From IMG/VR virus record IMGVR_UViG_3300021087_000011: a stretch of 64,000 bases of DNA; one strand, given 5' to 3'. The first letter of the stretch is position 1. Every line of letters begins with the position of its first letter. Below the pieces are notes generated by a model, which did no database searches, was not told where the DNA came from, and saw nothing but the letters and a program-made list of their open reading frames with translations. Origin of the DNA: an uncultured virus (IMG/VR IMGVR_UViG_3300021087_000011). Taxonomy: Duplodnaviria; Heunggongvirae; Uroviricota; Caudoviricetes. The position numbers were made by a program, and so were the translations under genes. Below are positions 18,201-43,408 of the stretch, in pieces.

Positions 18201-21170
18201 GCCTTCAGAAACCAAATCTCCAGCCCGGACTTCCATCTCGGCAATCTCATAGTCCCCACGCATTGGCCCTTCACCATGAATTGCCGCATAGGTGGGAGAG
18301 GGGGTGACCCAGTCTCCAGGATTTATTTGACGTTTAGCCCTATGTGCTGCCAAGTCCTCCGGGGTGGTTGTTATGCCTGGCTGGGCGCGTCGTAAGTAGC
18401 GCAAGTCGGCGTCAGTCATGATCTTGCCGGAAGGGACGGCCCTGTAGGCCGTGATGATTTTGTCGGGGTTTTCGGCGGCGCTATCAAGCGCTTCTAACAT
18501 CTCATCATTTGCTCTTGCATATTCAGGATCACTTGTGCCTGAACCGTAGAACCGAATCCTGTGAGTGTTGTTTTCCCCCGCTTGGAGGGGAAGCCTGTTT
18601 GACAAATCATCGAGAGTGTCGCCACCCTCCGCGCTCTTGGTGGGTGCCTGATGTCTCCCCCGATATTCGGCTTGCTCGTGGGCTTCACTTTTGGAACGCT
18701 CGCGGGTTTCACGTTTGGAACGCTCGTGGGCTTCACGTTTGGAACGCTCGCGAATACTTTTCTCTCGTCGTTCTGTGTCCCATTTCCTGAAGCCCCCAGG
18801 ATTTTCGCCTTCTTCCCTGAGTCTTTCCGCATAAGTCTTACCCCTACGAGGATCATCTGAATGGGAGGTGGCACTGACCCGTGGCAGGTTGGCAATCTTC
18901 CCATGGTGAGTTGCTTGGTCCCCATCAATATCTGTAGGGTCAAAGATCTCTTCAAACTTCTCTTCATCATATATAACAAGGTTTCCGTCTTTAAAAGAAG
19001 CAACTAGAGAAGGTGGTGTATCAATAGTGTTACCGTTGTCGTATATATGGGCCTCATCTACGCGACCCTCTTCGATATACTTCACAACCTGATCACGAAC
19101 TTGACTCGCGTCTTCAGGCTTGGCGCCATACCTGCGCCTCTGCCCTGAGCGACGATCAGCAATTCTGCGACTCCGTTCTAAGTCGGAGACATAGAGGAAA
19201 TGCATTACCGAAACCCTGTCACCCCTCCGACCATTTCTGTAATCGCCCCTCTCATAAATCGTGTCCCCCAATAACCTTCCATCTTTGCCGGTTCCCTGAA
19301 CAACAACGTCTATTCCTTCATCCAGCGCTGCCCGTACAGTCTTTTCTGATTCGGTTCTGGAAAATTGGTGTGAATCAAAAGAACCCTCACCAAAATTCCA
19401 CAACTTATGGAATTCTTTGTAATCATCAGGGTTGGTATGGACGGCTTCACTTAAACTAGGAACCCCCAATTCCCCTCTGTCTGTTCGTGTAGTTTTTCCT
19501 GATCCGGGCGCACCAAAGACCCAATGAATTTGCTGCACAGGCTTACCGCGGTGTTCTTCATTGACGGCGTCCAGAGATGCTTTGCGGTATTTGGCTGCTT
19601 TGTCTGCTTCTGACAGATCCCTTTGTTCTTCTGGGGTTAGTTTGAAACCGCGTATCGATTTAAGTCCAACCGCTTCTTCAAAAGCGTAGTATTCGTACAT
19701 TAAATCAAGATCGTTATCGGTTATAGGGGCATCAGGCATCTCTTCCATGTCTCTTTCGAAAGTCCGCCGATCGCGACGTTCTGTTCTTAAATCGCGCCGC
19801 CTTTGGAGTCGATCCGCCCGTCGCTCCGCACGTCGTCGACCAGTTCGAGTAGAGGCAAATCCCGAAGGCAAGTCTGGATCCGTCCAGTCGCCACGCTCTT
19901 CGCGTGCGGTTCTTTCCGCTATAAGTCTATTGAGATAATCAGAATCGTAAAAGGGTCGCCGGTATCTAGACGGTAATCCTTGCTCAAGTCGGTCCCGATC
20001 CATTTGTTGAAGCCCTATTTGTGCTTTGATCTCCCTGTCAGTAAGACCTTCCACCCTGAGTGGATGACCCGTTACGGGATCTTTTTCGAGTCGCAGCCGT
20101 TCAACTTCTTTACGACGATCAAACTCTGCCAGCGCTTCTCTCGTAATCCGGTCAAGAGTCTCATCCGGCAAATTTTCCATTTCGGCAGGGATTTTAGAGT
20201 CATTGCCCCAACTCCAAGTTCCTGATCGCCCCTCCCCCAAGTCAACCTCGCGAGCCAGTCGATACAACTTGTCATCTGGTACGTCCGGATTAGCGCGACG
20301 CAACTTCTGCATCTGCGCATAGCCCGCCAGGTCCATTAAGTGATCTAGTTTTTCGCGCGACTCCCCAACAGGATCTTCCGGAACCACTGCAGGATCGACT
20401 TGTGCTGCAATTCCACGTCGGGAACGTAGGCCAGGGACTCGTGGAGTAGCCGGGCGCTCCCATACGGTTCCCTCTTGGACAATCATGTCCATGTCGGCAT
20501 CCCGTGCATCTCGATTAAAGGGGGTTGTTGCAGCAACTCGGGCACGGTTGAGTTTCCGACCGAGAGCCTTCCCTTCGTACAGTTCCTCCATCAATGACTT
20601 CTTCCGACGTAACTGCCGGCGAACCTCACGAGAAACTGCGCGCTCTAGCCTGCGCTGTGCTTGGCGGCGTTGATGATTGCGACCAAAAGCCGTTGATCCG
20701 GTGCGCTTTGCATAGTCGGTCATATTGCTACATGGCGTCCAAACGACATTCCCATTACGGGATACGCGCCTAGAAATACCGATACATCCGAGTTGACGGG
20801 ACCTCCTGCGGGCAAGCCGGGGAGTCGTGAACACATCGGGATCTTCATCGTCCGGAGCCCAAGGTGCGGCTTTGACAGAACCGCCGACAAGACCGCCTCC
20901 AGCGATCGTGTCGATGGAGGTCACACCCCGTTCCGCAAGGGGTTCCCAATCTCGTTTGTTTTTTCCTTTGGAATTGCGGTACCGGCGACGTTGTTCAACT
21001 ACCCGAACGGTGTTTTTCTTGTCTTTTTTGACAAGTTCTTCGTATTCCTCCATGGTTGCGCACGGCATCCACTTCCCGTCGGGGTGTTGGTGCGCGCCAG
21101 AGCAGCCCATTTGTTGGGCGAGGCGTAGGGCGGCTGCCTTGGATGCCACCAGGTCGGTATCAGCCGCCAT
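15261..21170 (-). CDS. giant polyvalent virion protein (2x DUF3721-like, zeta-toxin-like P-loop kinase, ART-like, ParB-like, papain-like, ART-like)
   Basis: GCSGAH..WMPC; GAPGSGKT..NPDDYK; YRA..INPGDWVT; GEGNHRLAAA; GDCY..HAWVE..D; LYHGG..GPGIYTT..GYD. Confidence 0.85.
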   Translation of the reverse strand: MAADTDLVASKAAALRLAQQMGCSGAHQHPDGKWMPCATMEEYEELVKKDKKNTVRVVEQRRRYRNSKGKNKRDWEPLAERGVTSIDTIAGGGLVGGSVKAAPWAPDDEDPDVFTTPRLARRRSRQLGCIGISRRVSRNGNVVWTPCSNMTDYAKRTGSTAFGRNHQRRQAQRRLERAVSREVRRQLRRKKSLMEELYEGKALGRKLNRARVAATTPFNRDARDADMDMIVQEGTVWERPATPRVPGLRSRRGIAAQVDPAVVPEDPVGESREKLDHLMDLAGYAQMQKLRRANPDVPDDKLYRLAREVDLGEGRSGTWSWGNDSKIPAEMENLPDETLDRITREALAEFDRRKEVERLRLEKDPVTGHPLRVEGLTDREIKAQIGLQQMDRDRLEQGLPSRYRRPFYDSDYLNRLIAERTAREERGDWTDPDLPSGFASTRTGRRRAERRADRLQRRRDLRTERRDRRTFERDMEEMPDAPITDNDLDLMYEYYAFEEAVGLKSIRGFKLTPEEQRDLSEADKAAKYRKASLDAVNEEHRGKPVQQIHWVFGAPGSGKTTRTDRGELGVPSLSEAVHTNPDDYKEFHKLWNFGEGSFDSHQFSRTESEKTVRAALDEGIDVVVQGTGKDGRLLGDTIYERGDYRNGRRGDRVSVMHFLYVSDLERSRRIADRRSGQRRRYGAKPEDASQVRDQVVKYIEEGRVDEAHIYDNGNTIDTPPSLVASFKDGNLVIYDEEKFEEIFDPTDIDGDQATHHGKIANLPRVSATSHSDDPRRGKTYAERLREEGENPGGFRKWDTERREKSIRERSKREAHERSKRETRERSKSEAHEQAEYRGRHQAPTKSAEGGDTLDDLSNRLPLQAGENNTHRIRFYGSGTSDPEYARANDEMLEALDSAAENPDKIITAYRAVPSGKIMTDADLRYLRRAQPGITTTPEDLAAHRAKRQINPGDWVTPSPTYAAIHGEGPMRGDYEIAEMEVRAGDLVSEGNSLYEFGYDPGSPPDPDPRDHPSWFDYEDFDDPNYYGDEDAYGDEDGFKSRRGGDPRVQKVARLESSEWNKYYGEETRKVADALGIDVTDPRYPHPGAVATLYDYGREESDVELVPIEFFDDMPGNIGAAASNDGNGDAYALAGEIREFESDPDVAILTEMTQTELVKSVGRVGILSPLIGHYDYETGDLVLGEGNHRLAAAREVGMTVVPIRFTQLRGQDVRAGARKQIQTLSKNKHGPVLPNGNQLSISFKPSDIGIPTHDLHETPEFEKLKQLRKGRNSAIMENIDRRNELKKRATQEALDSGSTREEAHAAGKEAWGSEKDRWLSSPEEPEEGESLQNAYRRHLKLKGIQTDGEQAFEEQYGYEMRSGDGDCYSAAYSAAAELAEKGVDVDGDPIENIRVVVGSPVFPKVGERSGHAWVEYEVVKPPPPVMSSADRDKAKEQILELVETMDLPPKQKQSTIDSFTDAIDRANEANASMPARNVTMVRDYSNVKDTEGELLEAKRPDMTRDSYYEAGELGEADISGRFTPAEYEETQVSLFGDEFYDGTATFLTREQVDQHLDDMGIDGLASKRTDAEDSEEEQIYQQGMEALTSIFNEAELHQSNDDIDALTNALFSTPMGYFGNLKPLSPETLDAVRELVEERDPEFLEELAEARHVRTTVNGFRRLVHSGLDSGVGDHGPDIVSNAWDMNKATTPGTPITLYHGGPIDLTGDVEYEVSRNDSGQWGPGIYTTSSAFPAIKGWANPWERTWVEGESGYPEPGPIKTVPKHLHTTKWKGENPPQILDAEESLPDDVLDEVVLPTLHGLGEEVAHAIVTGDGRWRQAYAWIGEDLDELVEDIARKRDGLNGGRDALTGRETLLWIQTFLQTNEMGPEQGGKGWNEEGFLPSERIQHIRKQINARIKDLGYDVIKSHEKGIRDMDRTDYLFLDPDMVEFVDVAPMESLGGFGNMGSVEMNKIVHARKKDRKTLEEAS
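18674..18752 (-). repeat. 24-bp in-frame tandem repeat, about 3.3 copies
   Basis: GCTCGYGGGYTTCACKTTTGGAAC units encoding ERSKRE(A/T)(H/R). Confidence 0.9.
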
Positions 21171-21175
21171 TGCGA

Positions 21176-21484
21176 TTAGCCGCCTTGAATTTTGGCAGCA
21201 GCCTGTTTCGCGGCCTCTGAATCATTTGGATACCGCTTCATGTACATGCGGGCTTCTTCGATTTCATCGGCCCACTTTTGCATTACTTCAGCGTATGGAT
21301 CATCTTCTTGATCATCGATTGCGTGTATGAATTCGTGAGCGAACTGTTGCCGTTGTTCACTATTGATAGAGAACGGTGGAAATTCAAGTAGGTGTGACAG
21401 TTCCCTATGGGTTTCAACCAGTTCAGCCCTGCGGGCATCTTCTGCGTCCATCTCTTCACGAGTCATATCCAGTGTGTACTTCAT
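21176..21484 (-). CDS. hypothetical protein
   Basis: 102-aa ORF translationally coupled to its neighbours. Confidence 0.75.
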   Translation of the reverse strand: MKYTLDMTREEMDAEDARRAELVETHRELSHLLEFPPFSINSEQRQQFAHEFIHAIDDQEDDPYAEVMQKWADEIEEARMYMKRYPNDSEAAKQAAAKIQGG

Positions 21485-24400
21485 CGGAAATCACCATATT
21501 CTGGGATTAATTCTCTCAGGCGAGCCTGGTCAAGTTTCCCTTGTTTAGCCAGTTTTTCAATTATTTGAGTTGCTTCTCCACCACTAACCGGGTGATCTAG
21601 TACAGCCAGCGCGGATCGATTGGAAACACTAATGACACCACCGTGTCGTTGAACCGCGTCATACCCATAGATTGGCATGGTATCGAAGAGGAAATGTTCG
21701 CCATCGCCCACTGATTCTGATAGCCCCCCAAGGAAACTCCACGCCAGTTCCATTTGCTGCGAATCAATGTCTCCGGAATCATGTAGGTCAAGGACCTGAT
21801 CAACAATTGACCCGAATTCTGTTTCCCTCCAACTGGCTCCCATGGGCCTACTTCCGGGTGTCGTGCTGTTTATAGAGAAGCCTGTACCGGTAGCCGTGCT
21901 GTGGCTGGGGTTGTTGGGGTCTTGAGGGTTGCGATCTTTATTTCTATTTGGAACCGTCAGTGTTCCGGCTTTTTCTGCTGCATCAAGGGCCGCGCGCACT
22001 GCGATAGCAAAGTTGTCTGGGTCATTTTTGATCGAACTGGGGGCTTCAGTGTCGATAAGCCCTGCCCCACTGAGAGTCTCGGTGATTGATGTGGACTCAT
22101 CGTGAATGTCGGTGAGTTTGCGCCAACCAACAAGTCTGGTTTCAGGCGTAATAAATGACAGGGCACCCTTTCCATAACCGCCATAAAGGTTGCCCTTGGG
22201 TGCTTCTGATCCGTCGACCATGACGGGAGGTTCTGCGTGGTTTTCCCCAGCAGCGTGTCCTTCCCCTCCGGCACCAGGAACATAACGCTGAACAAGATGT
22301 GTCCACTGTTCCCAGTAAACTTCACCTTCTTCGCCGTTCTTTCCGCGGCCCATGCCACGTTGGATGGGCTTGAACCCCTCGCGAAGCCTGAAGGCTCCCG
22401 GGTTGTCTGGATCTGGTTCAAACGCTATTTCTTGAAGTTCATCTGCTGTAACCAGTTCCGGAATAGCACTGTGCCCGGAGTGGAACCAAGAGGCATCGAG
22501 AACTTCATCACGGATACTGCGCCCGCTTTTGCCGGCTTTGGCATAACCACTACTCTTGCCCTTGTTTCTCTTGAGGTCACGCTTTTCTTCTCCGCGCCTG
22601 ACTTTAGCGAGGAAGGCCAGTCGGTCAATGAAACCAGCGTCAACGGTCAAGGTGCCTTCGGCTTGCTCCCACTGTTCTAGGTCATCACCAGTGCCGGCAA
22701 ATGCCGTTGAAGCACCCGCGCCACCAATTGGTCTATCGGTGTCACGGATTCCCGTGGTTCGCTTGTCCCTAATCCTGTCGAGTCGTTCCCTACTGGTGAG
22801 TCTTCCAAGTTTCTTTGCGACCTTTTTGGCTTTCTTGAGTTCTTTTCTTTCTTCTCGGTCCAGTCTTGTATCCCAAGGGTTGACAACCTTCGTTGGTCGC
22901 AACGAAGCACCGGAGCCACCTTGTTGGGCAGCGCGCCTTCTAGCGGCTGCTTCTTGCCTGCGCCTCCAAGCAGCAACTGCACCTGGGGCCAAGATGGATG
23001 TACCGAGCCGTTCAACGGCTTCTGCCCTCCGCTGCCTGCGTGGGCGCTGATCTGCAGCACCTGAACCACTTGGCTTTTCCCTGAATTTCCTACTCCGCCG
23101 CTTAACGGCTTTTTTGTAATCTTCTTCGGAATCTTCACCGCCGAGGGCTTTCCAGATTGTTGAATTTTTGCCACCTCGACCACTAGCGGTAACACCCTTG
23201 ACTTTTTCTGGGAAGGTTTGATCTTTGGAGCGTGCAATTTCGAGAAGCCGCCTACGGGCCTCAGGGTGAAGTTGCTCCAATGCCTCATAGTTGCCGCTTC
23301 GTTTCATCTGATGAAGGACCTGTAGAGAATCCAACTGCCTTCTCTTGGTGGTAATACGTTTGCCGACATTGCCCCCCATGTAATCGAGCATTTGAACTTG
23401 AATGATGTTTTCAAGAACCCTTACAGCCTCGTCGGCATCTCTACCCATGGTGGCAAGGTTCCATTCAACCATTGGTGGAGCCGAATCACCTTTAGCGATG
23501 TGTCCTCCGGCAGCCATGGCTTCGGCAATCACATCACTAAACAGGTACTTGTAGGATTGATCCCTGTTGAGGTTTCCACCCATGATGCCACCGTCGAAAG
23601 TGTCGGCTCGGGACTTTTTGTCTGATCGGCCAACCATTAGTTCTTCTTCGAGTTGGTCAACGGCCTCAGTAATGGCCTGAGTGTGTGCTGGAGACATGTC
23701 CCCAGCATTGTCAGTAAGTGAATCCCAAATTTCTCCGTCATTTGTGCCGGCTTGTCGTGGACCCTCATCCCGTGAATAAAGACTCGGGATGGTCTGCGTC
23801 ATGTCACCGTCATCGCGGCGCCGTCTGGAAGCCAAACCGAGTGGGCGAGCAGCGCGTTCCGTTGTAGCGGTGCGCATGCGAGCGCGAGAAGGTTCACGTT
23901 GTGGGGTCAACCTCCCAGGGCTGACAGTGCGTCGTTCTGTGTCGGTTATTTCTCCACCTTCGGACCAGAAACGTTGATCTGTCCTTCTACGGGCCAGTCG
24001 CGTATCAGGGTTCGACCAAGGCGCGCCCTGCCTGGTTGACCGAAGTCCGCGATCGCGGGCTTGCTCGATGGTCGCCAACTGCTGTTGGGCGAGTTTGTTG
24101 ATCTTCTTTTTGTCGGGCTTGTCTTTTCCGCGTTCTGTCCCTATTTGTTCAGCAAGTTCAGCAAGCGTATTTTCGGCCTCTTCGCGGGCTCTAGTCCATT
24201 CCGCATCCCAGTCATCTGTTGTGCGAGTGGAGCGCCAACCAAATTTGGCAACACGTCCCTTACCCATCGCTTCGCCAAGTTGTTCGCGAAGTTCTGCTTC
24301 TTCCTCCTGGAATGGTCGTACCTGTTTCCGGAGACGATGGATGGCCCTGCTGTCTCCCTCTTCTTGAGCCGCAGCAATCCGTTCGAACAGGGGTTTGATT

Positions 24401-27400
24401 TGTTGATCACGAACTGAGTCAATCCGACTATTGAGAGAGTTGACCTTGGCCTGATCTACCTTGGGTTCTTCTTCTGGTGCTTCTGGTGCCCGTTGGGAGC
24501 GCCAGCCGTCCCTGTATACCGCTTGCCTTGTTCCCGGGCCATCGGAGGTGTAATCCCATGGCGCGCCACCATCTGGACGATCGTCGTAGTCGTCGTCGGG
24601 GTCCGGTGGTTCGAAGTCATCGACCTCAATCGGGTTGCCGTCTTCGTCGTAGTTCTCGTCGTCGTCGTCAGGGCCACCCGACCCAGATTCCAGCCACCGG
24701 TCGTAACGATTGTCCTCGCCTCTGGAGGATTGCAGGCCGCCCTCATCCGGGCTTCGAAGGTGGGTAACTTCCCGGCTTCGGACCTCTTCTGGATCCATGT
24801 TGAACCGTTGGGCTGCCTCATCCAGAGACATCCCCCTCATTCGAGCCTCGGCAATACGCCGGTTTAGGTTCGGTTGGGCATCGTGTTTATCTTGACCCGA
24901 CAATGAATTAGCGTGAGTAACTTCACGCATCCGAACTTCAGATCGATCCATGTCATATTTTTCGGCAGCCTCTTCAAGAGACATGCGGTCACGCACACGG
25001 TCTTCGTAAATGCGTTTATTGAGATTTGGTTGGGCGTTATACCTCTCCTGGCCGGAGAGCAGATCCATGTGTTCTACTTCGCGGCGACGGACTTCGAGGC
25101 GGTCCATGTCATATTTGTCAGCGACCTGATCAAATGTCATCGGTGACATGCGGTCATTGAAGACGGCTTCGTTGAGTTTCTCGTTTCGAACGATTGGGTC
25201 GCTGAACTCTTCGGTGGGGGTGGGATTGTCTGGATCCCGGTCAACGAATGAACGGAACCCTTCGTTGCGGCCCCATTCAATTTCTTCCAGCGCTCGCCGG
25301 CCTGCTTCTTCGAGTTCGTTGCCCCTTGTATATTCTTCTTGTCTCATCTCATCCGTCATGCGGTTGAGTGATTCTTCGATCCGTTGATCCGTCATGTCGC
25401 GGATTTCGTTTTGGATCTCGTTCCAGTCGTCCGGATCTTGGTCGTAGTTGGATGCTGGCCCGTCGTCCGGCGGTTCCCAGTCGGGATCAATTATGTCTTC
25501 AGAAGTTCCATCTGATCGCATTTGGCGAACCATGCGAGGTGGGTCATCATCTCCAGATCCTCGGCGTGAATTCCTCGTCCTCTCCCTCCAACTGGCAAGT
25601 TCTGTTTGAATTTCCCTCCAGTCATTTGGATCGTTTGGATTATCCAGATCATCGCGCTGAGACCTAAGCCCGGAGTCATTTCTAGACAGCCGGTCGAGAC
25701 GATCTTCCAACTCAGTCGATTTTCCCCAAAATACTTGTGGATCCGTTGCTGATGTTTTAAGGTCTTTGATCGCGTCTTCAAACCATTCGAGTTTTTCCTT
25801 GGGGAGCATGTCTAGAAGTATCGCGTGTGTTTCTTCATGTCTCCGTATTGCGCGATCTTCTTCAGTGATGAAATCCATCGTCATTGGAAGAGGTCCGCCA
25901 CCACGTCGCCCATTGGCATAGTGAGGCCACCGTTTGGCCCCTTCGTCGGTGTAGTTGTGCATTGACCATCTTTTAAGACCTCTGGTGGTTCCATTCAGGT
26001 GGCCACCCGGGCCGCGTTCAGAATCGGTGTATGTGCCCCCATTGTCTGCACGCATATTTTCAGGTGGGATGGCTCCAAGCCAACCACCAGTTGTTGCCAG
26101 ATCTTCCCAAATCATTTCTCGGGTAACCTCAACCGGTCCACGCCCATCGCCACGGTCAACCGTTTCGCCCAACCCAAGTATGTTGCCCAGCCATGTTTCC
26201 GTGTTCTTATGGGCTTGATCCTGTGTCGATGCGCTCTTGGAGCCGGGAGAATTCTTCCGAACAATTCCGTCGAGACCGTCACCGCCGCCGGCCAACGTTG
26301 ATTCATGAATAGGCATGCTGTTGCTGGCCATGGCCCCTTTGATGCCGGTCCAATGCTTTTCATCCATGATGTCGAGTTCTCTTGGCTCGATGTGACGACT
26401 CTTGTCGGCCATAAACTCGGGTAGGGTTTGTTTTCCTTTTTTCGTTTTACTAATTTTCCTGTAGGCGTTTGTGTGGATTATCTCAATGGCGTCTGTGAGC
26501 ACCTTTTCTGGCATCGTGGGGGGTAAATTGTGCTCTTCGCGGGTTCTAATACCCTTGGTGCTTGATGGTGCCGTAGAGAGACCCTTTTCAATCGCCCTCA
26601 TTTTGGTGTTGGCCGTTACACGATCCGGAGCAATAACTTCTCCAGCATGTCCAGCCTGGTTGACGCCGAAAAACGCCCATCCGTTGGCCGTTAAACGGTC
26701 ATACAGTTCCCCACCATTCCCCGGGAAATGTTCGTTCTTTGCGTTACTGCCTGCCTGCAGTGTGGCTGACCCTTGATTCTTGATGGGTGTTTCAAATGAC
26801 GAGGTTACGAGTGTGTCATCTGGGTTGTCCCCATCGACGTGTCTGGCGGCAGTGGTGTTGCGATTATTTACATCGTCTACAATTTCTCGTCCTAGTCGAG
26901 TGGATTGAAAACCCCCACCATCTCGCATGTGACCGCCGTATTTGCGTTCCCATTTAAGATTTCGTATTCCGCCATCTGCAGTGATACTGAGACTTGGAGT
27001 CTGGTCGTCATCACGCAGGGCTCCCGCTACCGTGCGGGGATTACTCAAGTTTTCTAGGTGTGTACTGGCATTGTCCCAAGCATTGCTGAAATCTAGGTAG
27101 GAGGTACCTGTGCCTTCTTCCCGCCCCATGTCGTCGTTGTGTTCATCAACCTCACCTATGAGATCTCTTATCTCTTTATGGGTGTAACCGTTTTCGTGGA
27201 CTAGTTCGCCGAATGGCACATCGACCAACTTGCCCCACCTGTCATCCGTTTCGTCCCAGTCCAGAGTCTCGGTGGCGATGATGTCGTCCATTTCGCCTTT
27301 TAGACCATCTGGATTTTCTACCCAACTCTGCTTTTTGAAGTCACTGCCGTAGGAGTCTGAGATCATGTCGTCTGCAATGACATCGCTTATTCGTCGCGGC

Positions 27401-29784
27401 GTTCCTTCGCCTACTCCGAACATTCCCTTGGGCCTCGGATTCGGCCAGTCCTTCACGTCTTGCCGTGTTAAACCTATTCCTTCAAGTCGTTTGTCAAGTC
27501 CTGCTCGCTCTTCGTCGGCTTCCCACATAATGGACATGATTTCATCGGCGTAATCCCTGACCTTTTTTATGTGGTCTTTAAGGAAATCGGGATCAGGGAT
27601 GTCGTCTTCATCGAGAGAATCCAGTAGATCATTGTCAAGTTCGGGCATGTCGGGGACATCATCGATTCCGGGACCACGTCGTCGGGAGTACCAGCCATCC
27701 CTGTATACCGCTTGCCTTGTTCCCGGGCCATCGGAGGTGTAATCCCATGGCGCGCCACCATCTGGACGATCGTCGTAGTCGTCGTCGGGGTCCGGTGGTT
27801 CGAAGTCATCGACCTCAATCGGGTTGCCGTCTTCGTCGTAGTTCTCGTCGTCGTCGTCAGGGCCACCCTGACCAGACTCCCGCCACCGGTCGTAACGATT
27901 GTCTTCGCCTCTGGAGGATTGCAGGCCGCCTTCGGAGCCCTTCTTGGGTGGATCCCAGTCGCCGTAACCGACATCGTTATCTATGGACCTGTCAAGAGAG
28001 TCGACCCATGCGGCTGCCTCTTCGGGCGTATCAAACACGTCTAGGTCATAAAGCCATTCAGCCTCATTACCTGAAGTCCCCTCGATGTCACGGTAGTAAC
28101 CGGACACCATGAAGCCATCACCTTCACCCATGACATCTGCTTCAGAAACGATTTCAACGTTGACGTTGTCTGTTTCGATTTTGCCGACAGCATCTTGACC
28201 TGGCCCCATCTCTGATTCGTGCCAGTCCCTCCGGTCATCAGGATCACGAATATCCCAAGCCATGTTGAGGTCTGCTTGATCGAGTTCTCGTAGCCATTCG
28301 CGATTGGCGGCCCGCGCTGACTCGGCCTCCCATCGATTCTCGGCAACCCATTGCCCATCCACAAACGTAGAGCGTTGGCGCTGGGAGCGCAGGCCCATTG
28401 CTTGCGCGAATCCCGGTGTCCTGAGTAACGATTCCTCAGCGAGAGTCATATCCTGATTGGGGCGGAGTCGGCTAGGCCGTTTCGGCGTAACAGGCTGGTT
28501 CCAATACTCCCGCGTTCCTCCGGGGTTATCTGGTTCAGATGGAGCGCCAGGGTGGTCTGCGTAGGCATCCCAGTCGATGGAAACCGGTTGAGTGTCTCGC
28601 TGGGAGGCCAGACCGCGACCTCGCCGATCTCTCGCTACGTCATAAGGATCAGGAGGTCCAGGTCCACGACGCAACCCGCCCATCTCCATGAGTGCGTCGG
28701 GATCGTCGTTAAAGGCAGCCTCAGAGAGATCCCTAATGGCTTTCTGCCATGCCTCGGGAAGATCTCTGATCGGCTTGTTGAGTTGTGCATCCAGTTCATC
28801 TTCGTCAAGGGTGGATGTGAAATCTTGCAGTTTGCTCCAACCATTCTGTGGAAGTTCGTCAGTCAACTCGTCCAACGTCCAATCCTGCATTCCCTTACGG
28901 AAACGTTCCCACTGGCGTTCAAACTCTTTTTCGTACTCTGGGTCGTCGTCTGGCTCATAGTAAGTGTCGGAGCGGCGCGAACTCAGGCCATCTCGCATCC
29001 TTCTGGCTGAACGATCACGGTCAGAGGAAGTCCGGCGAGTGGTCCCGGGTAAATCTGGCTTGCCTGGCAAAGCGGGTCGCTCCCAAGCGGTGCCTTCCTG
29101 AACAAGCATGTCGAGGTCGGCATCTCTAGCGTTGGGGTCAAATCCCGCTGCGCTACGACCAGCCGCCCTTCCGATACGTCGGGCATGGCGAGCCCCACGC
29201 CCAATCTGTCGGCCCAGTGCCTTGGTTTGCATCTCTTCTTTAGAGATTGCATCATCGCGGCGATAAGGCTGAGTGAGAATCAGGATCTTAGATTTGAGTA
29301 GTTCTTTTGCCGTCCTTCGGGTGCGTGAATTGTCTGGGATGAGACGACTGCCAGACAGACGAGCCTTTAGGAGCAAACTGGAATGATGTGAATCGGCCAA
29401 AAAGGCATGAGCCTTGTAGTTGATGGCGAGTTGGCGCGACTTTTTAGAGATTCCCTTCAAGGGAACATGGGCCAGTCCAACCCCAGTGGAGTTGTTGTCC
29501 AACCATTCGGAATCGACAAGAGAGAGCATCGCTGGGGAGGGGATTGCTTCGGGAGACTTTTCCAATACCTCCTCCATGTCAAACCCCAGGCGACCGAAAT
29601 GTCCCAGTTCAACATCTGGCGGTAATCCTTCTTCAAGGGTTTTTACTTCGCCAGCGTTATACAGGTCAGCCCATTCGGTTCCAGCAGCATGGAGTCCATA
29701 GCAAATAGAACTCGAACCGTTCTTAACGACGACACCAAAGGGCTCATCGCGAACGGTATCAGTGGCTACTGCGTAGTACTTCAC
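21481..29784 (-). CDS. giant acidic polyvalent virion protein with many short motif-delimited modules and tandem HTH-like repeats
   Basis: 2767-aa ORF, DARDAD tag, 12 G[LFW]xSxR motifs, internal duplication. Confidence 0.85.
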   Translation of the reverse strand: MKYYAVATDTVRDEPFGVVVKNGSSSICYGLHAAGTEWADLYNAGEVKTLEEGLPPDVELGHFGRLGFDMEEVLEKSPEAIPSPAMLSLVDSEWLDNNSTGVGLAHVPLKGISKKSRQLAINYKAHAFLADSHHSSLLLKARLSGSRLIPDNSRTRRTAKELLKSKILILTQPYRRDDAISKEEMQTKALGRQIGRGARHARRIGRAAGRSAAGFDPNARDADLDMLVQEGTAWERPALPGKPDLPGTTRRTSSDRDRSARRMRDGLSSRRSDTYYEPDDDPEYEKEFERQWERFRKGMQDWTLDELTDELPQNGWSKLQDFTSTLDEDELDAQLNKPIRDLPEAWQKAIRDLSEAAFNDDPDALMEMGGLRRGPGPPDPYDVARDRRGRGLASQRDTQPVSIDWDAYADHPGAPSEPDNPGGTREYWNQPVTPKRPSRLRPNQDMTLAEESLLRTPGFAQAMGLRSQRQRSTFVDGQWVAENRWEAESARAANREWLRELDQADLNMAWDIRDPDDRRDWHESEMGPGQDAVGKIETDNVNVEIVSEADVMGEGDGFMVSGYYRDIEGTSGNEAEWLYDLDVFDTPEEAAAWVDSLDRSIDNDVGYGDWDPPKKGSEGGLQSSRGEDNRYDRWRESGQGGPDDDDENYDEDGNPIEVDDFEPPDPDDDYDDRPDGGAPWDYTSDGPGTRQAVYRDGWYSRRRGPGIDDVPDMPELDNDLLDSLDEDDIPDPDFLKDHIKKVRDYADEIMSIMWEADEERAGLDKRLEGIGLTRQDVKDWPNPRPKGMFGVGEGTPRRISDVIADDMISDSYGSDFKKQSWVENPDGLKGEMDDIIATETLDWDETDDRWGKLVDVPFGELVHENGYTHKEIRDLIGEVDEHNDDMGREEGTGTSYLDFSNAWDNASTHLENLSNPRTVAGALRDDDQTPSLSITADGGIRNLKWERKYGGHMRDGGGFQSTRLGREIVDDVNNRNTTAARHVDGDNPDDTLVTSSFETPIKNQGSATLQAGSNAKNEHFPGNGGELYDRLTANGWAFFGVNQAGHAGEVIAPDRVTANTKMRAIEKGLSTAPSSTKGIRTREEHNLPPTMPEKVLTDAIEIIHTNAYRKISKTKKGKQTLPEFMADKSRHIEPRELDIMDEKHWTGIKGAMASNSMPIHESTLAGGGDGLDGIVRKNSPGSKSASTQDQAHKNTETWLGNILGLGETVDRGDGRGPVEVTREMIWEDLATTGGWLGAIPPENMRADNGGTYTDSERGPGGHLNGTTRGLKRWSMHNYTDEGAKRWPHYANGRRGGGPLPMTMDFITEEDRAIRRHEETHAILLDMLPKEKLEWFEDAIKDLKTSATDPQVFWGKSTELEDRLDRLSRNDSGLRSQRDDLDNPNDPNDWREIQTELASWRERTRNSRRGSGDDDPPRMVRQMRSDGTSEDIIDPDWEPPDDGPASNYDQDPDDWNEIQNEIRDMTDQRIEESLNRMTDEMRQEEYTRGNELEEAGRRALEEIEWGRNEGFRSFVDRDPDNPTPTEEFSDPIVRNEKLNEAVFNDRMSPMTFDQVADKYDMDRLEVRRREVEHMDLLSGQERYNAQPNLNKRIYEDRVRDRMSLEEAAEKYDMDRSEVRMREVTHANSLSGQDKHDAQPNLNRRIAEARMRGMSLDEAAQRFNMDPEEVRSREVTHLRSPDEGGLQSSRGEDNRYDRWLESGSGGPDDDDENYDEDGNPIEVDDFEPPDPDDDYDDRPDGGAPWDYTSDGPGTRQAVYRDGWRSQRAPEAPEEEPKVDQAKVNSLNSRIDSVRDQQIKPLFERIAAAQEEGDSRAIHRLRKQVRPFQEEEAELREQLGEAMGKGRVAKFGWRSTRTTDDWDAEWTRAREEAENTLAELAEQIGTERGKDKPDKKKINKLAQQQLATIEQARDRGLRSTRQGAPWSNPDTRLARRRTDQRFWSEGGEITDTERRTVSPGRLTPQREPSRARMRTATTERAARPLGLASRRRRDDGDMTQTIPSLYSRDEGPRQAGTNDGEIWDSLTDNAGDMSPAHTQAITEAVDQLEEELMVGRSDKKSRADTFDGGIMGGNLNRDQSYKYLFSDVIAEAMAAGGHIAKGDSAPPMVEWNLATMGRDADEAVRVLENIIQVQMLDYMGGNVGKRITTKRRQLDSLQVLHQMKRSGNYEALEQLHPEARRRLLEIARSKDQTFPEKVKGVTASGRGGKNSTIWKALGGEDSEEDYKKAVKRRSRKFREKPSGSGAADQRPRRQRRAEAVERLGTSILAPGAVAAWRRRQEAAARRRAAQQGGSGASLRPTKVVNPWDTRLDREERKELKKAKKVAKKLGRLTSRERLDRIRDKRTTGIRDTDRPIGGAGASTAFAGTGDDLEQWEQAEGTLTVDAGFIDRLAFLAKVRRGEEKRDLKRNKGKSSGYAKAGKSGRSIRDEVLDASWFHSGHSAIPELVTADELQEIAFEPDPDNPGAFRLREGFKPIQRGMGRGKNGEEGEVYWEQWTHLVQRYVPGAGGEGHAAGENHAEPPVMVDGSEAPKGNLYGGYGKGALSFITPETRLVGWRKLTDIHDESTSITETLSGAGLIDTEAPSSIKNDPDNFAIAVRAALDAAEKAGTLTVPNRNKDRNPQDPNNPSHSTATGTGFSINSTTPGSRPMGASWRETEFGSIVDQVLDLHDSGDIDSQQMELAWSFLGGLSESVGDGEHFLFDTMPIYGYDAVQRHGGVISVSNRSALAVLDHPVSGGEATQIIEKLAKQGKLDQARLRELIPEYGDFR
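24502..24744 (-). repeat. 243-bp direct repeat, copy 1
   Basis: Near-identical to 27691-27933. Confidence 0.95.
27691..27933 (-). repeat. 243-bp direct repeat, copy 2
   Basis: Near-identical to 24502-24744; encodes EGGLQSSRG...QAVYRDGW. Confidence 0.95.
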
Positions 29785-31754
29785 TTTCCTCCTCCAACCA
29801 TGCTGGCGATACGTTTGAGGCTGGTCCTCAAAATGCCAAGTCTGGTATCAAAGATAGTTTCAATGATTGCAAGGTGCGCCTTTTCGGCGGGGGTTAGTTC
29901 ACCATTCCTGGTGAGACTCTGACGAAACATGCTCGTATCAAATGTTTCTGCACGCTGGATAAGTTTGGTCAATTGTTGTTTGATAAGTTTTTGTTGCTCT
30001 GCTTGGAGAGAGGCAAAATACTTACCGTAAATACCTTCCGGCTGCAAAGAACGCATCTCTTCAATTCTTTGCTGTGCAGCCTTTCTAATCTCAAGTTTAT
30101 CTAACGGAACCAAATCTGAGGGACTGTTTGCGGCGACAAGGCGAGTCTTGTCTTCGCTACTCACTGTTGACAGGGAGGTGGGTAGTCGCTTGTTGATTCC
30201 GGTTACAACATCCGCTATTAGCATGGCTGTCATCTCTCGCGGAGATGCGTTATTAACTGTCTTTCGTCTGTCTACGGCTCCGCCATCTAATGTTGAGGCT
30301 GCGTCCTGTAAGAGGTATCGACGTTTATCACCCTTGCCCACAAAGGCAACATCCGGAGCATTGAGGCCCAGGTGGTGTTGTACCTCAGATGCAAAGGCTG
30401 CGTGTAGGTGTTCGAAATTATGCTTTGAGTTTCTGATGGCGTACTGTCGCTTTTGGGGAGTGGTAACGAGTTTCTTTGTGACCTCCAGAGCATTCTTTTC
30501 TTTTAGAACTTCCTCGAGAATCGAAGGGGCGATGTCTGACAAATTCCCACCCTGTGAGATGTGGGCGAGTGCCGCATCAATACTGGTGATTTTGTCTGAT
30601 TCTGGCGCTTCTGTTTCGGGTGTCTCCGGTGTTTTGGGTGCGCGTTCCGTTACCCCTGCCGTTGTCGGTCGAGGCTTCTTGGGGGCGCCTCCTTCAATCA
30701 CTTGAATGCCGTCGCCTGTTTCTTCAGAGACATATTGAAGTCGAGACAGTTCATCATCTCCGGCGTCTCGCTTCATCGCCGCGTTTACTGTGCGGCCAAG
30801 TTTCCTTCGTTCACCAACGGTGAGTTCTCTCATCTTGGCTATGGACACGCTTGTGCCATCGTCTCGGATATATGTCAGATTGGTAACGCCGGTATTGGAT
30901 AGCAGGCCGAGTTCTTCTCCACCGATTCCTTCTGCCCCAATGGTCATCATGTAGGTGGCGCCCTCCATATCCCTGTTGTCGGGAATGGTTCTCAATACGG
31001 CTGGCGTGACAACCGGTTCCAAATCAAATCCGTCTCTGCGAATCATGCGGTGGGCTTGAATGTCTGGTTTACCCATAGTGGGGATCAATTGTTGAACTTT
31101 TTGTCGTTGAAGTTGCCTGTTAGCAGGGCCAACTCGGGGGATCGTCTGGTTGGGATCACGCGTTGAGCGTTGACTTTGAATATCACGCCCGCGACCCAAT
31201 TCTGTTGGTTTGCTTGCCTGTGCCCCCACTGCTCTGGGGGTACCACGACGAATGGCCGCGATAGTTTCGCCAAGAATGCTGGGGAAGTCGAACAATTGTT
31301 GGCCACAGGTTGAAAGTTGAGAGTCGGTAAAACGCCCCCCATACTGATAACCCTCCGGGCAACGGTAGGACCGTTCCCTCCCACGGATTCCACGGCCCGG
31401 CATGCTGCCGATGCCAGGGGTTAGTGCTGAATAAAGTCTCGACCTCACTGGGCTGCGGACTCGACTCAAGTTGCCGGGTGTGATCATGGATCCAACAGCC
31501 TGTACCGACTGTCCCAGTCGACTGCGAGCACCAACTAAACCAACACGCTTCACGTTGTACTGGCGGGTGTTTCCATTGCGCTTTGACAGGGCTTTGTAAT
31601 TAACAACCGATTCGGCATCTGCACGATAACCGCAAATAAAACCAGAGGGTCGTGGTTGTGAGAGGTCGGCAGTGATAACTCTTTTCACGGTGATAGTTAC
31701 ATCTTCACCAGGGCAACAAGATGCGTCCTTTGTATAGGTGTAACTAATTTCCAT
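29781..31754 (-). CDS. virion-associated protein with CPxG..FTD..STC tag and C-terminal HipA/PI3K-like kinase-fold domain (possibly inactive)
   Basis: YRCPEGYQYGGRFTD; ASEVQHHLGLNAP, IADVVTGINKR (D of the DR motif missing). Confidence 0.6.
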   Translation of the reverse strand: MEISYTYTKDASCCPGEDVTITVKRVITADLSQPRPSGFICGYRADAESVVNYKALSKRNGNTRQYNVKRVGLVGARSRLGQSVQAVGSMITPGNLSRVRSPVRSRLYSALTPGIGSMPGRGIRGRERSYRCPEGYQYGGRFTDSQLSTCGQQLFDFPSILGETIAAIRRGTPRAVGAQASKPTELGRGRDIQSQRSTRDPNQTIPRVGPANRQLQRQKVQQLIPTMGKPDIQAHRMIRRDGFDLEPVVTPAVLRTIPDNRDMEGATYMMTIGAEGIGGEELGLLSNTGVTNLTYIRDDGTSVSIAKMRELTVGERRKLGRTVNAAMKRDAGDDELSRLQYVSEETGDGIQVIEGGAPKKPRPTTAGVTERAPKTPETPETEAPESDKITSIDAALAHISQGGNLSDIAPSILEEVLKEKNALEVTKKLVTTPQKRQYAIRNSKHNFEHLHAAFASEVQHHLGLNAPDVAFVGKGDKRRYLLQDAASTLDGGAVDRRKTVNNASPREMTAMLIADVVTGINKRLPTSLSTVSSEDKTRLVAANSPSDLVPLDKLEIRKAAQQRIEEMRSLQPEGIYGKYFASLQAEQQKLIKQQLTKLIQRAETFDTSMFRQSLTRNGELTPAEKAHLAIIETIFDTRLGILRTSLKRIASMVGGGK

Positions 31755-32425
31755 TATTCACATCCGCAATCGCCAGGGGAGAAATCCACACTCACCAAAC
31801 TGCCAACTGCATCCTCTCCTTCTATTTCCCAACTCTCAAAGTCTCTGAGATAAGAAACGAAGTCGGGCTCCATGTCCACAAAGTCGCGAAGCACGCCCGA
31901 AGCATGCTTGAAATCAGCATCGGTTACTACTGGATTATAGTTCCTGCCACCCTGTGAATCTTTGACCTCTGTGAAATCTCCAAAGAAGAAATCTTCTTCG
32001 TAAACCATTTCATGCTCAAGGGCGTCTTTTTTTCCTTTTTTGATGCGCTTTTTGAATCGTTTACGCATCCTCTTCCCCCACTCGTCGTCCGACCATCCTA
32101 ACTTCCGAAGTTTGCCTTTACAATTCTTCATGCCTGGGTGATGGCATCCTTCGTTGGGCCACTTGCCCGTTGTTTCATGATGGAGCCACGCGCAGATTCG
32201 TTCCAGTGGATATAACTCTGGATGGTTGGCGAGAATGACACGACAACGTGTGAAACCGCCGGGTTTTTTCATGATTGGCCTCCAATAACGGAGGAGTCTT
32301 TCGAGATTTCCACGACGAGGACCACGACCACGGGTAATGGATGTCAGACGCTCCTGTGGGAGGTCCAGCAACACATCCTGTGGCCCCTTGACTTGGTAAT
32401 CGTTATCAGTTTCCATTACGCCCAC
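31754..32425 (-). CDS. phage head-module protein with Cys/His motif
   Basis: LLRYW..PGGFTRC..L..ICAWLH..TGKWP motif of the kind seen in actinophage head modules. Confidence 0.7.
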   Translation of the reverse strand: MGVMETDNDYQVKGPQDVLLDLPQERLTSITRGRGPRRGNLERLLRYWRPIMKKPGGFTRCRVILANHPELYPLERICAWLHHETTGKWPNEGCHHPGMKNCKGKLRKLGWSDDEWGKRMRKRFKKRIKKGKKDALEHEMVYEEDFFFGDFTEVKDSQGGRNYNPVVTDADFKHASGVLRDFVDMEPDFVSYLRDFESWEIEGEDAVGSLVSVDFSPGDCGCE

Positions 32426-32705
32426 TTAGCAATCTACGAACTGTTGGTTCAAGCCCAATCGAATGACGCATTCCCCATAGGGCAGCATCCTTGGAGTCCC
32501 TGAAATCATGACCCACTGTTGGCATCGACAAGCCGAATGTTGTTTCTTCAATAAGACTACGCCGTTCGCCGTGGTGGGGATCAGTACCTGTCTCCAATTC
32601 TCGCAGACGACCGACGAACTCATCGACACTTTCTTCTTCACTTTGTTCAATGAGGTCATCACCAAACAGTTCTGTCCGTCTGGCACGCCAGCGTTCGTCA
32701 GCCAT
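32406..32705 (-). CDS. hypothetical protein
   Basis: 99-aa ORF overlapping both neighbours. Confidence 0.6.
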   Translation of the reverse strand: MADERWRARRTELFGDDLIEQSEEESVDEFVGRLRELETGTDPHHGERRSLIEETTFGLSMPTVGHDFRDSKDAALWGMRHSIGLEPTVRRLLSGRNGN

Positions 32706-35700
32706 GTGGGTCCTGCTTCGTATTTCGTGCTAACCGCTCCATCTGTTGACTCTGTTGAAGCAACTCTTCCCTACGGAGGTATTCGTCTCGAGGCAAGTTG
32801 TAGAGGGTAGTTCGATCCGTATCCATTCTAACCTTTGCAGTGAATGGTTGATTGCTCCTAAGCCATGCAGTTAGTTTTTGCAATGCTTTGAGTTGGGTGG
32901 AATTGATTGTCGGACGAATAGTTAACCCTGAGGCAAGTGCTGCGCCGAGTTCTGCAAAGAATTCATGATGGCGGGCGTTCATCCCATTCACCAGCGGTGT
33001 CATACCTGAAGGCAGTGGGCCTCTCTGATCAACCCATCCCATGTATGGCGCCCAACGGACTGTACGTCCTCCAGACAAGGTTGATTCAATCCCGATATCT
33101 TCGACTAGATCCATTACCCCATCAATCTCTTTTTCATTGAGGTCGTCGAAGTGGAATGCCGCCCTTCCGACTGTGTCCATGTATGCGGTGATGTTTGTAC
33201 GCACGACATCTTTTTGCTCATCTGTTGTGCTGGGGTCCCGTAGAGCGTTCTTGGATTGTTTCAGAACTTTGTCCATCCAGTGTTCTGTGAGTTCTTGTAG
33301 CGCATCATCAACTTCATTTTCTGGCAAGTCTGGATCCATGAATGACATTACGTCACGACCTCTTCCCAATTTGGGCGGCCGGTCTGGCGGGACATCTGCT
33401 AAAGACCGTCCTGGGGTGTCTCCCTTGAGGAGGCTTTCGTCATACCATGAGCGGGGGATTCGACCCGTGGCTCGGGCTAAAGCATTAATGAGAACATGCG
33501 TCCCCTCTGGACTGAGTGCGGGGATGATCGCATCCCGTTTCATGGTGGGGTCTGATGATGCCACGCCATGCATCTGTATTTCGGGTGTTCCATTTTCGAG
33601 CATGATGCCTAGTGCGTCTGGTGTGTAGGTGAAATGGTTGAGAATGTTTCCAGCAGAGGGTGATCCGGGATTTGAAGATTGATGTTGAGCGACATCAATT
33701 AGCGAGCGTCCGGACATGGGTTGCACATAACTGCCCCCATATTTCCCACGCTTTCCCGATGCGTCGTGCGATATGGTGATGGCCCAGAGTGGAGTTCTTT
33801 GTGGCAACCCGGCTGCATCCGCTCCGGCAAATGGCGTACCCGTGTCGTCAAGGTAAGCGTGTTCCTCACCAAACACATTGTGTATGTGTTGATGGGTTAA
33901 CGGGTCACCCACTTTGACTGGTTCACCTGGAGACGCATCGCGGTCATGTATTGGGTCAAGATCTGTTTGGCTGAGGCTAAGGGTGTGTTCCAGACTCGAA
34001 CTGGTGAACACTGGGTGACTGTTGAGAAAGTCAGCGACTTCTTCCGTGATAAGGATCGGCTCGCCATCCGCTCCCATGATTGGCTGCTTCAGGTGTTCGA
34101 CGAGACCCTCCATGGATTCGCGACTGCGATCCTGCACGTCTTGCAACAGGTCGGGGTCATTGATGGCACCTGGGCTGTAGTTCGGATTGTTTCGAACCAT
34201 GCTGGTGGGGTCGGCCATCCCAAAGAGGGCCTCTACCTTTCTGGCGTTGAGGTGGGCTACATATTTGGGGAGCGTGTCTGATAGGCGTGTTGATATGACG
34301 GTTTCCAAAGCGCGCCGTTTTTGGCGGCTGGTCATGCGGGAAGCCAGTTGCTCCCTGATGAATTTTTCCAAACCCTCCATGGCGGTTCCACCTTCACCGA
34401 CATGTTCCCTGATGGCTTTAACGAGATCGGAGCGCATTGCCATGTAGTGGTCTGCGTGGGTGAATTCGTGGTGTGCAATATTGGCTGCAGCGTGTCGAAT
34501 TGCCTCTTCGTGCTGTTTTCTGACTTTTTTGCTTCGTCGGGTTTTCCTAGGGGTGCCCACTCGCCGGTTCAGTCGTTGGTCCCCAATTTTCTGAGTGGTG
34601 TGAGGAGTGTTCCAATTATCTGTCGGGTCAGACTCCCATCCTTCGCCGTCGACCATGTGTGGCTCATCCAGTTCGGCCATAAAACTCATATAGATCCGTG
34701 TCGCCATCATGTCCATGGAGGAGTCGCCGGCCCGCCTGGGGTCTGCTCGTGGACTATAGGAGGCATCCAGGGCATCATCCCAGTAGCGTTGCCCATCTTC
34801 CATGAGGTGGGCTTGGGGAGATTTTTTGGTCGGATGGTTGCGCCTGTGATCAACTTCAGCAAGAGGAGTGTCCCCCTTGTAAGCGATTTCGATTGTTGGC
34901 TTGTTATCTTCCGTGAGTATCAGTTCACCATTCGCATCAAGGTCGAACACTGCTCCACCCTCATACATCGCCCACCCATCTGCGTTCGCCGAGGCCATTA
35001 CAAGGTCTTGTTCGTCTCGGGTTCTAAAACTGTGGACTTGTAGGTTTGCGTCCTGAAGGTTTGGATTAAGGCGTAGGTGTTCTAAGAGTGCATAGCCCAC
35101 TTCTCTTTCTATCGGACCCATGTCACTCGGATGAAAAACTCCTCCATCAAATGACGATCCTCCTCCTGCGGCGAATCCAGGATGGGCTTTCTTGAGGGCC
35201 TCCAACATCTCTTCACGGGTACGGATCGGTTCACCATCGCTGTACGCCTTCTCGACCGCTCTGTGTTCTGCTGTCATTATTTGTCGTAAGGCTTTGGGAC
35301 TACTGTCAACATAACGGTCTGGGTCTCGATGAAAGTCCCTCCACCCCTTTCCGTCGCTGGTTTTCCATCCGCGTGTAGGACCCTCATCGCCGGCGCTCCT
35401 CTGACTCTGGAGTCCTTGTCCTCGGGCACGACGTTCCATGCGTCGGGGGGAATCAGGGATACCTGGAAGAGCAGGTCGCTCCCACGGGGTGCCCTCCTGA
35501 ATGATCATGTCTAAATCAGCATCGATGGCATCAGCATCGAAACTTCCCCCTCGGGCAAGACGCCGGGCGCCTCTGCCAATTCTTCGCCCCAACGCCTTCT
35601 CGTGGAGGCCCGCCGCTAAGAGGCTCTTAAATTCTGAGGCTCGATTGCTGCGTTTCTGACTAGCCTTTTTCCGTTTGTGATGTTCGGGAAAGTCTGTAAT

Positions 35701-35994
35701 AACAGGAACGCTTAGTAGGAGTTCTTTGCGCGGCTCAACGCTATGTTCCCGAAATACTTTGCGCCAACGGTCTTCAAGATTTCCGTCTTGCCCATACCAA
35801 AAGAAATCATGAAATTTGGTATTTGTGAGTTTCTTCCACCCCTTGTCTCCTGAAACTTTCCCCATGTATGAGAAGAGGTCTACGAAAATGGGTTCTTGGT
35901 TTGGCCGAATAATGGCACCATCGTGGTCGTTCTCTTTATCGACGAGGAAATAGATTCTGTCGTCGTAATAATCGGCCACATGAATAGCGCGCAT
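32698..35994 (-). CDS. large virion protein with zincin-like HExxH metallopeptidase motif
   Basis: DARDAD-type tag; HHEFTH and distal HEFFAE. Confidence 0.8.
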   Translation of the reverse strand: MRAIHVADYYDDRIYFLVDKENDHDGAIIRPNQEPIFVDLFSYMGKVSGDKGWKKLTNTKFHDFFWYGQDGNLEDRWRKVFREHSVEPRKELLLSVPVITDFPEHHKRKKASQKRSNRASEFKSLLAAGLHEKALGRRIGRGARRLARGGSFDADAIDADLDMIIQEGTPWERPALPGIPDSPRRMERRARGQGLQSQRSAGDEGPTRGWKTSDGKGWRDFHRDPDRYVDSSPKALRQIMTAEHRAVEKAYSDGEPIRTREEMLEALKKAHPGFAAGGGSSFDGGVFHPSDMGPIEREVGYALLEHLRLNPNLQDANLQVHSFRTRDEQDLVMASANADGWAMYEGGAVFDLDANGELILTEDNKPTIEIAYKGDTPLAEVDHRRNHPTKKSPQAHLMEDGQRYWDDALDASYSPRADPRRAGDSSMDMMATRIYMSFMAELDEPHMVDGEGWESDPTDNWNTPHTTQKIGDQRLNRRVGTPRKTRRSKKVRKQHEEAIRHAAANIAHHEFTHADHYMAMRSDLVKAIREHVGEGGTAMEGLEKFIREQLASRMTSRQKRRALETVISTRLSDTLPKYVAHLNARKVEALFGMADPTSMVRNNPNYSPGAINDPDLLQDVQDRSRESMEGLVEHLKQPIMGADGEPILITEEVADFLNSHPVFTSSSLEHTLSLSQTDLDPIHDRDASPGEPVKVGDPLTHQHIHNVFGEEHAYLDDTGTPFAGADAAGLPQRTPLWAITISHDASGKRGKYGGSYVQPMSGRSLIDVAQHQSSNPGSPSAGNILNHFTYTPDALGIMLENGTPEIQMHGVASSDPTMKRDAIIPALSPEGTHVLINALARATGRIPRSWYDESLLKGDTPGRSLADVPPDRPPKLGRGRDVMSFMDPDLPENEVDDALQELTEHWMDKVLKQSKNALRDPSTTDEQKDVVRTNITAYMDTVGRAAFHFDDLNEKEIDGVMDLVEDIGIESTLSGGRTVRWAPYMGWVDQRGPLPSGMTPLVNGMNARHHEFFAELGAALASGLTIRPTINSTQLKALQKLTAWLRSNQPFTAKVRMDTDRTTLYNLPRDEYLRREELLQQSQQMERLARNTKQDPHG

Positions 35995-43388: not shown

Positions 43389-43408
43389 CTGGGCCTACCT
43401 TCTAATCC

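Follow-up and report, generated by a model that had tools for sequence, protein, structure and literature searches.

Giant genes of the head operon

The window, which is the whole 64,000-nucleotide stretch of DNA that was analysed, comes from an uncultured virus of the Caudoviricetes (IMG/VR record IMGVR_UViG_3300021087_000011). It encodes five giant multi-module proteins, termed A to E, between its portal and capsid genes. The modules of these proteins begin with the peptide motif G-[LFWMY]-x-S-x-R, and the motif counts below refer to this pattern. The operon context as a whole covers 13673..57691 and contains the following genes.

13673-15013: HK97-type capsid gene
15261..21170, minus strand: gene E, 1969 aa, with 5 motifs
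21481..29784, minus strand: gene D, 2767 aa, with 12 motifs; its N- and C-terminal parts are conserved and its middle is variable
32698..35994, minus strand: gene C, 1098 aa, with 1 motif and a second HExxH at 34456-34470
35994..43388, minus strand: gene B, 2464 aa, with 3 motifs and an HExxH domain
43409-45121: probable scaffold gene, assigned from its position and acidity
45129..54098, minus strand: gene A, 2989 aa, with 12 motifs and an N-terminal S78 prohead protease
54196-56154: portal gene
56366-57691: terminase gene

By layout and domain content, the five giant proteins belong with the phage polyvalent proteins (PMC5512222, PMC7824862, in their accessible portions). Like the proteins described in PMC5512222, they are giant chains of disparate domains encoded among virion genes, and they share with them ART-PolyVal, ParB-like, HExxH and assemblin-like peptidase domains. 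The domains found are S78, ParB-like and KTSC in gene A, ART-PolyVal in gene B, Sigma70_r4 in gene D, and DUF3721 with weak zeta-toxin-like, SAF and ParB-like matches in gene E. All of the listed Pfam domains fall within one module each, and most modules have no Pfam match. The assemblin-like peptidase of polyvalent proteins is described as always C-terminal (PMC5512222), whereas the S78 protease of gene A lies at aa 25-169 of 2989 and is fused to 2800 further residues. This is a difference in layout and does not touch a core criterion of the group. No match to MuF was found in the giant proteins.

A peptide motif restricted to the giant proteins

The five giant proteins (11,287 aa) contain G-[LFWMY]-x-S-x-R 33 times, and the 39 other ORFs (9,238 aa) lack it; 1000 shuffled controls gave a mean of 0.87 occurrences and a maximum of 5. 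All four glycine, all six serine and all six arginine codons are in use at the motifs, and the 33 motif 18-mers share a mean identity of 9.5/18 nt with a longest exact run of 3.5 nt. The motif codons are degenerate, and selection therefore acts on the peptide and not on the DNA. The surroundings of the motifs are richer in disorder-promoting residues (0.73 vs 0.64), and genes B and C contain motif-free stretches of 900-1300 aa.

Among 57 giant proteins of distant relatives, 26 (counted by eye) have a dispersed motif version of their own, with lineages using LSSG, GFSSxT, GLAS, ISGRM or LTGAM; the remaining 31 have no dispersed motif or an unrelated pattern. Motif pairs just 7-10 residues apart are seen in L107, L109, P0004 and P0006, and these close pairs are possibly redundant sites or scars of lost modules.

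A duplicated acidic module in gene D

Gene D contains two copies of a 243-bp repeat, and motifs stand at both ends of each copy.

27691..27933, minus strand: repeat copy 1 (aa 618-698), made up of E-G, GLQSSR, the acidic module and G-W; polymorphic in ocean populations
27910..27927, minus strand: motif GLQSSR, which opens copy 1
27679..27696, minus strand: motif GWYSRR, which closes copy 1; the repeat ends inside it, and the empty allele reads GLRSRR here (hand translation)
24502..24744, minus strand: repeat copy 2 (aa 1681-1761); contigs bridge both junctions, and it is present in P0001 and P0011
24721..24738, minus strand: motif GLQSSR, which opens copy 2
24490..24507, minus strand: motif GWRSQR, which closes copy 2; the repeat ends inside it, and two other alleles break here (24493, 24496)

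Both copies are in frame and differ at only 8 of 243 bases. Each opens with the two codons for E-G in front of GLQSSR and stops behind the G-W of the next motif, as the initial annotation had described. That annotation also took the repeat to copy a single acidic module of about 75 aa; the module measures 77 aa from motif to motif and is 34% Asp+Glu. The flanks of the two copies are unrelated, with 14/49 and 14/56 bases matching. A repeat-finding run stretches the pair to 254 nt at 96% identity, because the second halves of both right-hand motifs resemble each other. A randomly placed end has a probability of 0.082 of lying within 3 aa of a motif, and for two independent ends the value is 0.007.

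Five of the eight differences between the copies are synonymous, and the other three alter two residues. The first 66 nt contain seven of them and a run of 171 nt has none, a clustering beyond chance (P=0.0004) that points to conversion or to a third allele rather than to steady drift. Copying of the acidic module to a second joint in gene D was recent. The E-G lead-in of the copies is the native context of site 2 in P0002, which hints at copying from site 2 to site 1; an X12 allele of site 1 likewise ends in E-G-G, which speaks against a firm direction.

In composition, the module contains 23% Gly+Pro, and the two copies have net charges of -19 and -20; equally acidic 77-aa windows make up 1% of those in the five proteins. 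Its mean hydropathy is 0.28-0.30, against a folding boundary of 0.50 in the charge-hydropathy plot, a composition test that places it far on the disordered side. No homologue was found in viral contigs (protein search), the ESM Atlas or the loci of relatives, nor in a weak search among proteins of 150-2000 aa. Among 1.84 billion representatives, the module matched itself and three beta-propeller-like low-complexity sequences only, and a degenerate DNA pattern gave 2 matches, neither similar to the window. It is absent from gene D of the 8 related genomes in the module table. The module's Y-D-E-D-G-N-P-I (approximately 27818-27838 and 24629-24649) is also a peptide of the probable scaffold (aa 236-243), and 21 bases identical to those encoding it occur in the scaffold genes of two relatives (L111:8975-8995, L025:12377-12397); this shared peptide is a borrowed piece or a convergence.

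Two alternative views of the repeat can be weighed on this evidence. One is that it arose in assembly, and three observations leave room for this: no contig among the matches listed bridges copy 1, the raw-read run X21 yielded 3 reads only, and the 171-nt identical run could come from collapse. Against it stand the 8 copy-specific differences, the unique flanks and the intact frame. The JGI protein P0001, which differs from the window at 3 residues elsewhere, carries both copies with the same residues (P0012, which is identical to the window and may be its source, was left out of independent support), and Logan contigs bridge the copy 2 junctions (X3 record 13, X6 record 19, X12 record 3). An assembly artefact is accordingly extremely improbable. 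The other view is that the Asp/Glu-rich peptide is a DNA mimic, as the initial annotation suggested, and was duplicated for dosage. Acidity was the sole support for that suggestion, and the mostly synonymous differences between the copies would suit it. To our knowledge, however, DNA mimics are folded, and a folded acidic scaffold does not agree with the module's hydropathy and Gly+Pro content. With no homologue beyond the low-complexity matches and no counterpart in the eight orthologous genes, a DNA mimic is very unlikely. Composition suggests instead that the module is most likely an unfolded acidic spacer or passenger peptide and not a folded effector.

Module exchange in relatives and ocean populations

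Different modules occupy the joints of gene D in relatives and in co-existing ocean alleles. Comparisons with relatives used an orthologue set from which P0005 and 26 other proteins had been dropped as redundant. In P0007 and L107, the module that precedes site 1 is followed by a motif-initiated module of a different kind in each case; at site 1, P0002 carries an unrelated peptide ending at GLRSRR. P0007 has a tandem duplication of its own, from motif to motif. A 414-aa module of gene D also lies between motifs in gene E of L107, with 90 identities over about 310 aa (L107:14001-23006, aa 1027-1439). Further gene D relatives were found neither among genome contigs nor with a C-terminal query.

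Several other rearrangements are visible in these loci. The gene D orthologue of L107 (6353-13792) consists of two ORFs beside a duplicated module, and this region contains a 123-bp tandem repeat that ends at a motif. L115:6819-7164 carries a duplication with a 186-bp period, whose right end lies on the lineage's own motif, L-T-G-G-M. The P0006 orthologue is filed under a Planctomycetota MAG and is probably a binned phage contig.

Contigs from ocean samples were compared to 21000-31000 in 4 of the 24 listed runs, namely three contig sets (X3, X6 and X12) and the raw-read run X21. Two of the three contig sets (X3, X6) contain an empty allele: a contig lacks 27689-27933 and has 32 different letters instead. 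Hand translation of these letters in frame gives eight linker codons and a single GLRSRR motif. Among the matches listed, 8 of 13 loose contig ends fall in gene D. At 24493, another module ending in GFASTR precedes the same downstream sequence, and its last residues (LPGQEGF) occur in the relative L128. At 24496, the acidic module leads into GWRSMR and then into a third neighbour unlike the others. The loose ends at 28395 and 28984 lie on motifs; those at 27946, 28268, 24311 and 26271 lie off motifs, the last two resembling diverged homologous sequence. In gene D, five of ten contig ends lie within a motif; with the repeat's own ends excluded, the count is 2/5 (P=0.011).

Breakpoints in the orthologue set show an excess at motifs. 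Among unique protein breakpoints, 9/40 lie within 3 aa of a motif against 2.5 expected (P=0.0006), or 6/36 against 2.2 without the repeat's four ends (P=0.019), and alignments tend to continue through a motif common to unrelated neighbours, which inflates such counts. At the DNA level, 13/70 breakpoints lie within 9 nt of a motif against 6.8 expected (P=0.015); at distances of 15 and 30 nt, significance is lost (P=0.10 and 0.32). The DNA breakpoints form a narrow spike, with 13/72 within 5 nt of a motif and 1 at 6-15 nt, and several stop abruptly at the motif. Most protein breakpoints lie elsewhere, 24/40 being more than 20 aa from a motif, and some exchanges occur within a module. The motif is a preferred joint and not the sole one. 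The earlier claim that motif-delimited modules are the units of duplication and shuffling holds insofar as modules are gained, lost and swapped at motifs (the empty allele, the orthologue modules and the P0007 duplication); given the off-motif majority and the sub-module swaps, it was overstated.

Candidate enzymes and the role of the motif

The motif is probably a protease cut site. A candidate enzyme and a second shared peptide are encoded in the operon.

41589..41603, minus strand: HEYTH of gene B, in a candidate zincin that may cut the motif
29047..29124, minus strand: leader peptide D-A-D-x-D-M-x-x-Q-E-G-T-x-W-E-R-P of gene D, with K-A-L-G before it at 29212-29223

In gene B, H-E-H of the HExxH is invariant in 18/18 aligned orthologue domains, and a downstream ExxAE consensus is present. 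The domain has no Foldseek or Pfam match, and nothing useful matched the structure modelled from the window itself (pLDDT 56). A model of the HExxH domain of the L055 orthologue (pLDDT 64) has as its best match the lethal-factor catalytic domain (Z 7.2, rmsd 4.5, 150 residues aligned). Its top five matches comprise three zinc-peptidase domains (lethal factor, BACCAC_01431 and PPEP-3) and two N-terminal toxin domains, which we take to be from the same toxin family as the zinc-peptidase matches. With a Z below 8, the model gives modest support to the view that this domain may be a zincin. Zincins often cut before a hydrophobic residue, a preference under which cleavage would fall at G|L, G|F or G|W. 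In polyvalent proteins, zincins have been proposed to release domains, and a zincin-like MPTase is described as common, though not universal (PMC5512222, accessible portion).

The leader D-A-D-x-D-x-x-x-Q-E-G-T-x-W-E-R-P occurs once each in genes A, C, D and E (52764-52826, 35470-35532, 29047-29124 and 20448-20510, respectively) and is a candidate head-targeting tag. The same leader is N-terminal on many smaller proteins of distant phages (L001-L023). That K-A/S-L-G before the leader is a site for the S78 protease is a guess. K-A/S is mildly more frequent in capsid and scaffold, at 11-12 per 1000 aa, and because some non-head ORFs have similar counts, a K-A/S rule for S78 remains a guess as well.

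Short degenerate motifs that are repeated across head proteins, with redundant sites, are also known for the prohead proteases of T4, phiKZ and SPN3US, and T4 internal proteins carry a capsid-targeting leader (PMC9026906, PMC10052503, in the portions available). Those enzymes cut after Glu, at L/I/A/S-x-E, whereas the present motif has no conserved Glu and conforms to none of the Glu-ending rules (T4 gp21, phiKZ gp175, SPN3US gp245). As far as these accounts go, such sites mostly remove terminal propeptides or serve to degrade core proteins; here, the motif lies between cargo modules of one chain.

How modules may move

Two further features bear on the mechanism of exchange.

58202..58840, plus strand: Rad52/Rad22-family annealing protein (PF04098, E 6e-9)
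47673..48082, minus strand: gene A module of 130 aa with identical 20-nt direct repeats of motif codons on either side (48063-48082 and 47673-47692)

Relatives replace the 130-aa module of gene A at 47673-48082. Donor and empty allele share 12/13 nt at the right joint of copy 1 (compared by hand). The left joint lies 8 codons before the empty allele's motif, and copy 1 has Tyr where both donor and empty allele have Arg; a single clean crossover does not explain the left joint and the Tyr codon. The motif serine is encoded by TCN in 30/33 cases against a 67% background (P=0.0015), as copying of motifs to new places would lead one to expect. Neighbouring motifs show no greater similarity than distant pairs (P=0.55 in the window, 0.73 in the clade). 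Neither the window nor the clade showed a general pattern of target-site duplication; among distant proteins, 2/9 gave P 0.03-0.04 and 7/9 did not. Exchange may thus be illegitimate or microhomology-assisted and filtered by selection.

Taken with moderate confidence, the favoured model is as follows. The giant proteins would be packaged head precursors, and the motif would be a cut site, most plausibly cut before the hydrophobic residue by the operon's zincin-like HExxH domain, with the S78 protease handling K-A/S sites. Illegitimate or microhomology-assisted recombination, either inside one phage genome or between two, would move the modules. Joints would be most frequent at motifs because all neighbouring modules stay intact when a swap preserves the cut sites on both sides, and they may also be favoured by the 10-13 or so (rarely 20) matching bases of the motif codons. 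The copied module would be an unfolded acidic spacer or passenger peptide.

Three alternatives remove one or another part of this model. Recombination could be blind, with swaps surviving anywhere in disordered linkers where the motif merely sits. The disorder around motifs and the off-motif majority of breakpoints agree with such linker tolerance, and a null restricted to disordered linkers stands when the repeat's ends are left out (5/25 vs 2.4 expected, P=0.084). With these ends the same null is rejected (8/29 vs 2.8, P=0.005), and neither the spike of DNA breakpoints within 5 nt nor the population contigs that break inside motifs are what it predicts, which makes linker tolerance alone unlikely. 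A different option, proposed in the initial annotation, is that module exchange is driven by annealing of motif codons through the encoded Rad52/Sak protein. The gene is there, right ends fall inside motifs, the gene A module has its exact 20-nt repeat, the TCN bias fits spread by copying, and Red-beta recombines DNA with 22% divergence (PMC2327257). The substrates in that work are about 800 bp, however, and 40-50 bp is cited as the short range for Red-beta-type pairing (PMC2896510; both as far as their accessible portions describe). Motifs that share 9.5/18 nt, are not more alike when adjacent and have such dissimilar flanks offer little to anneal, so that part of the earlier proposal is weak and a driving role for Rad52/Sak is quite improbable.

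The third alternative concerns the motif itself, which might remain uncut and act instead as a recurring binding tag in packaging, unfolding or ejection, with modules travelling along with the tag. Cutting is deduced from sequence, the motif lies outside the Glu-ending rules cited above, and the long motif-free stretches of genes B and C would suit a tag. The separate, once-per-protein leader is a better packaging-tag candidate, though, and lineage-specific drift of the motif together with pairs 7-10 aa apart suits redundant cut sites, as does the conserved HExxH domain nearby. A binding tag is thus rather unlikely, and a motif that is probably cut is kept in the model.

Comparison with other systems

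The near-identical patches in unrelated contexts and the presence of a Rad52-superfamily gene recall the homeologous mosaicism attributed to Red-beta and Sak (PMC2327257, PMC2896510, in part). The locus differs in having no 100-200 bp shoulders around the repeat, as the 14/49 and 14/56 flank matches indicate, and in that exchange occurs within genes, at peptide motifs.

Integron gene cassettes are variable arrays of modules, each with a boundary mark, and are polymorphic in populations. The modules of the giant genes share these three properties, but here a peptide marks the boundary and a single reading frame contains the whole array. A conserved DNA recombination site of the integron kind is absent from the 33 motifs, and the 30 ORFs scanned in the window include no integrase or dedicated recombinase. 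A wider reading can be offered tentatively: in this phage clade the cut site may double as the recombination joint, its codons supplying barely sufficient microhomology and selection preserving it, so that head cargo would form an in-frame cassette array that needs no integrase or att site, with standing polymorphism in the ocean and with each lineage possessing its own motif and a matching protease.

For polyvalent proteins in general, both processing and the acquisition of domains are open questions. The founding paper (PMC5512222) proposes domain release by an embedded peptidase; in its accessible text it names no cut site and describes no junction motif or motif-bounded exchange. A literature search that covered mostly non-subscription papers found none on motif-bounded module exchange in polyvalent proteins. 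The present locus offers a candidate cut site, a candidate enzyme, and dated-looking exchanges with empty and filled alleles in nature. The mechanisms of cleavage and exchange thereby become directly testable, and cargo modules can be separated from giant genes by sequence alone.

Other features of the window

The gene D module at 24739-25671 consists of about three 52-aa helix-turn-helix repeats (Sigma70_r4, E 2e-7) and is possibly a packaged transcription regulator. Gene E contains a 24-nt tandem repeat at 18674-18752. At 62077-63992, a ParB-like gene is followed by a PAPS-reductase-domain gene, and the pair is perhaps a DNA modification cluster. A WhiB gene points to an actinobacterial host (PMC6802176, accessible portion). 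Among 20 runs containing the stretch, the label is marine metagenome in 18 and metagenome in 2.
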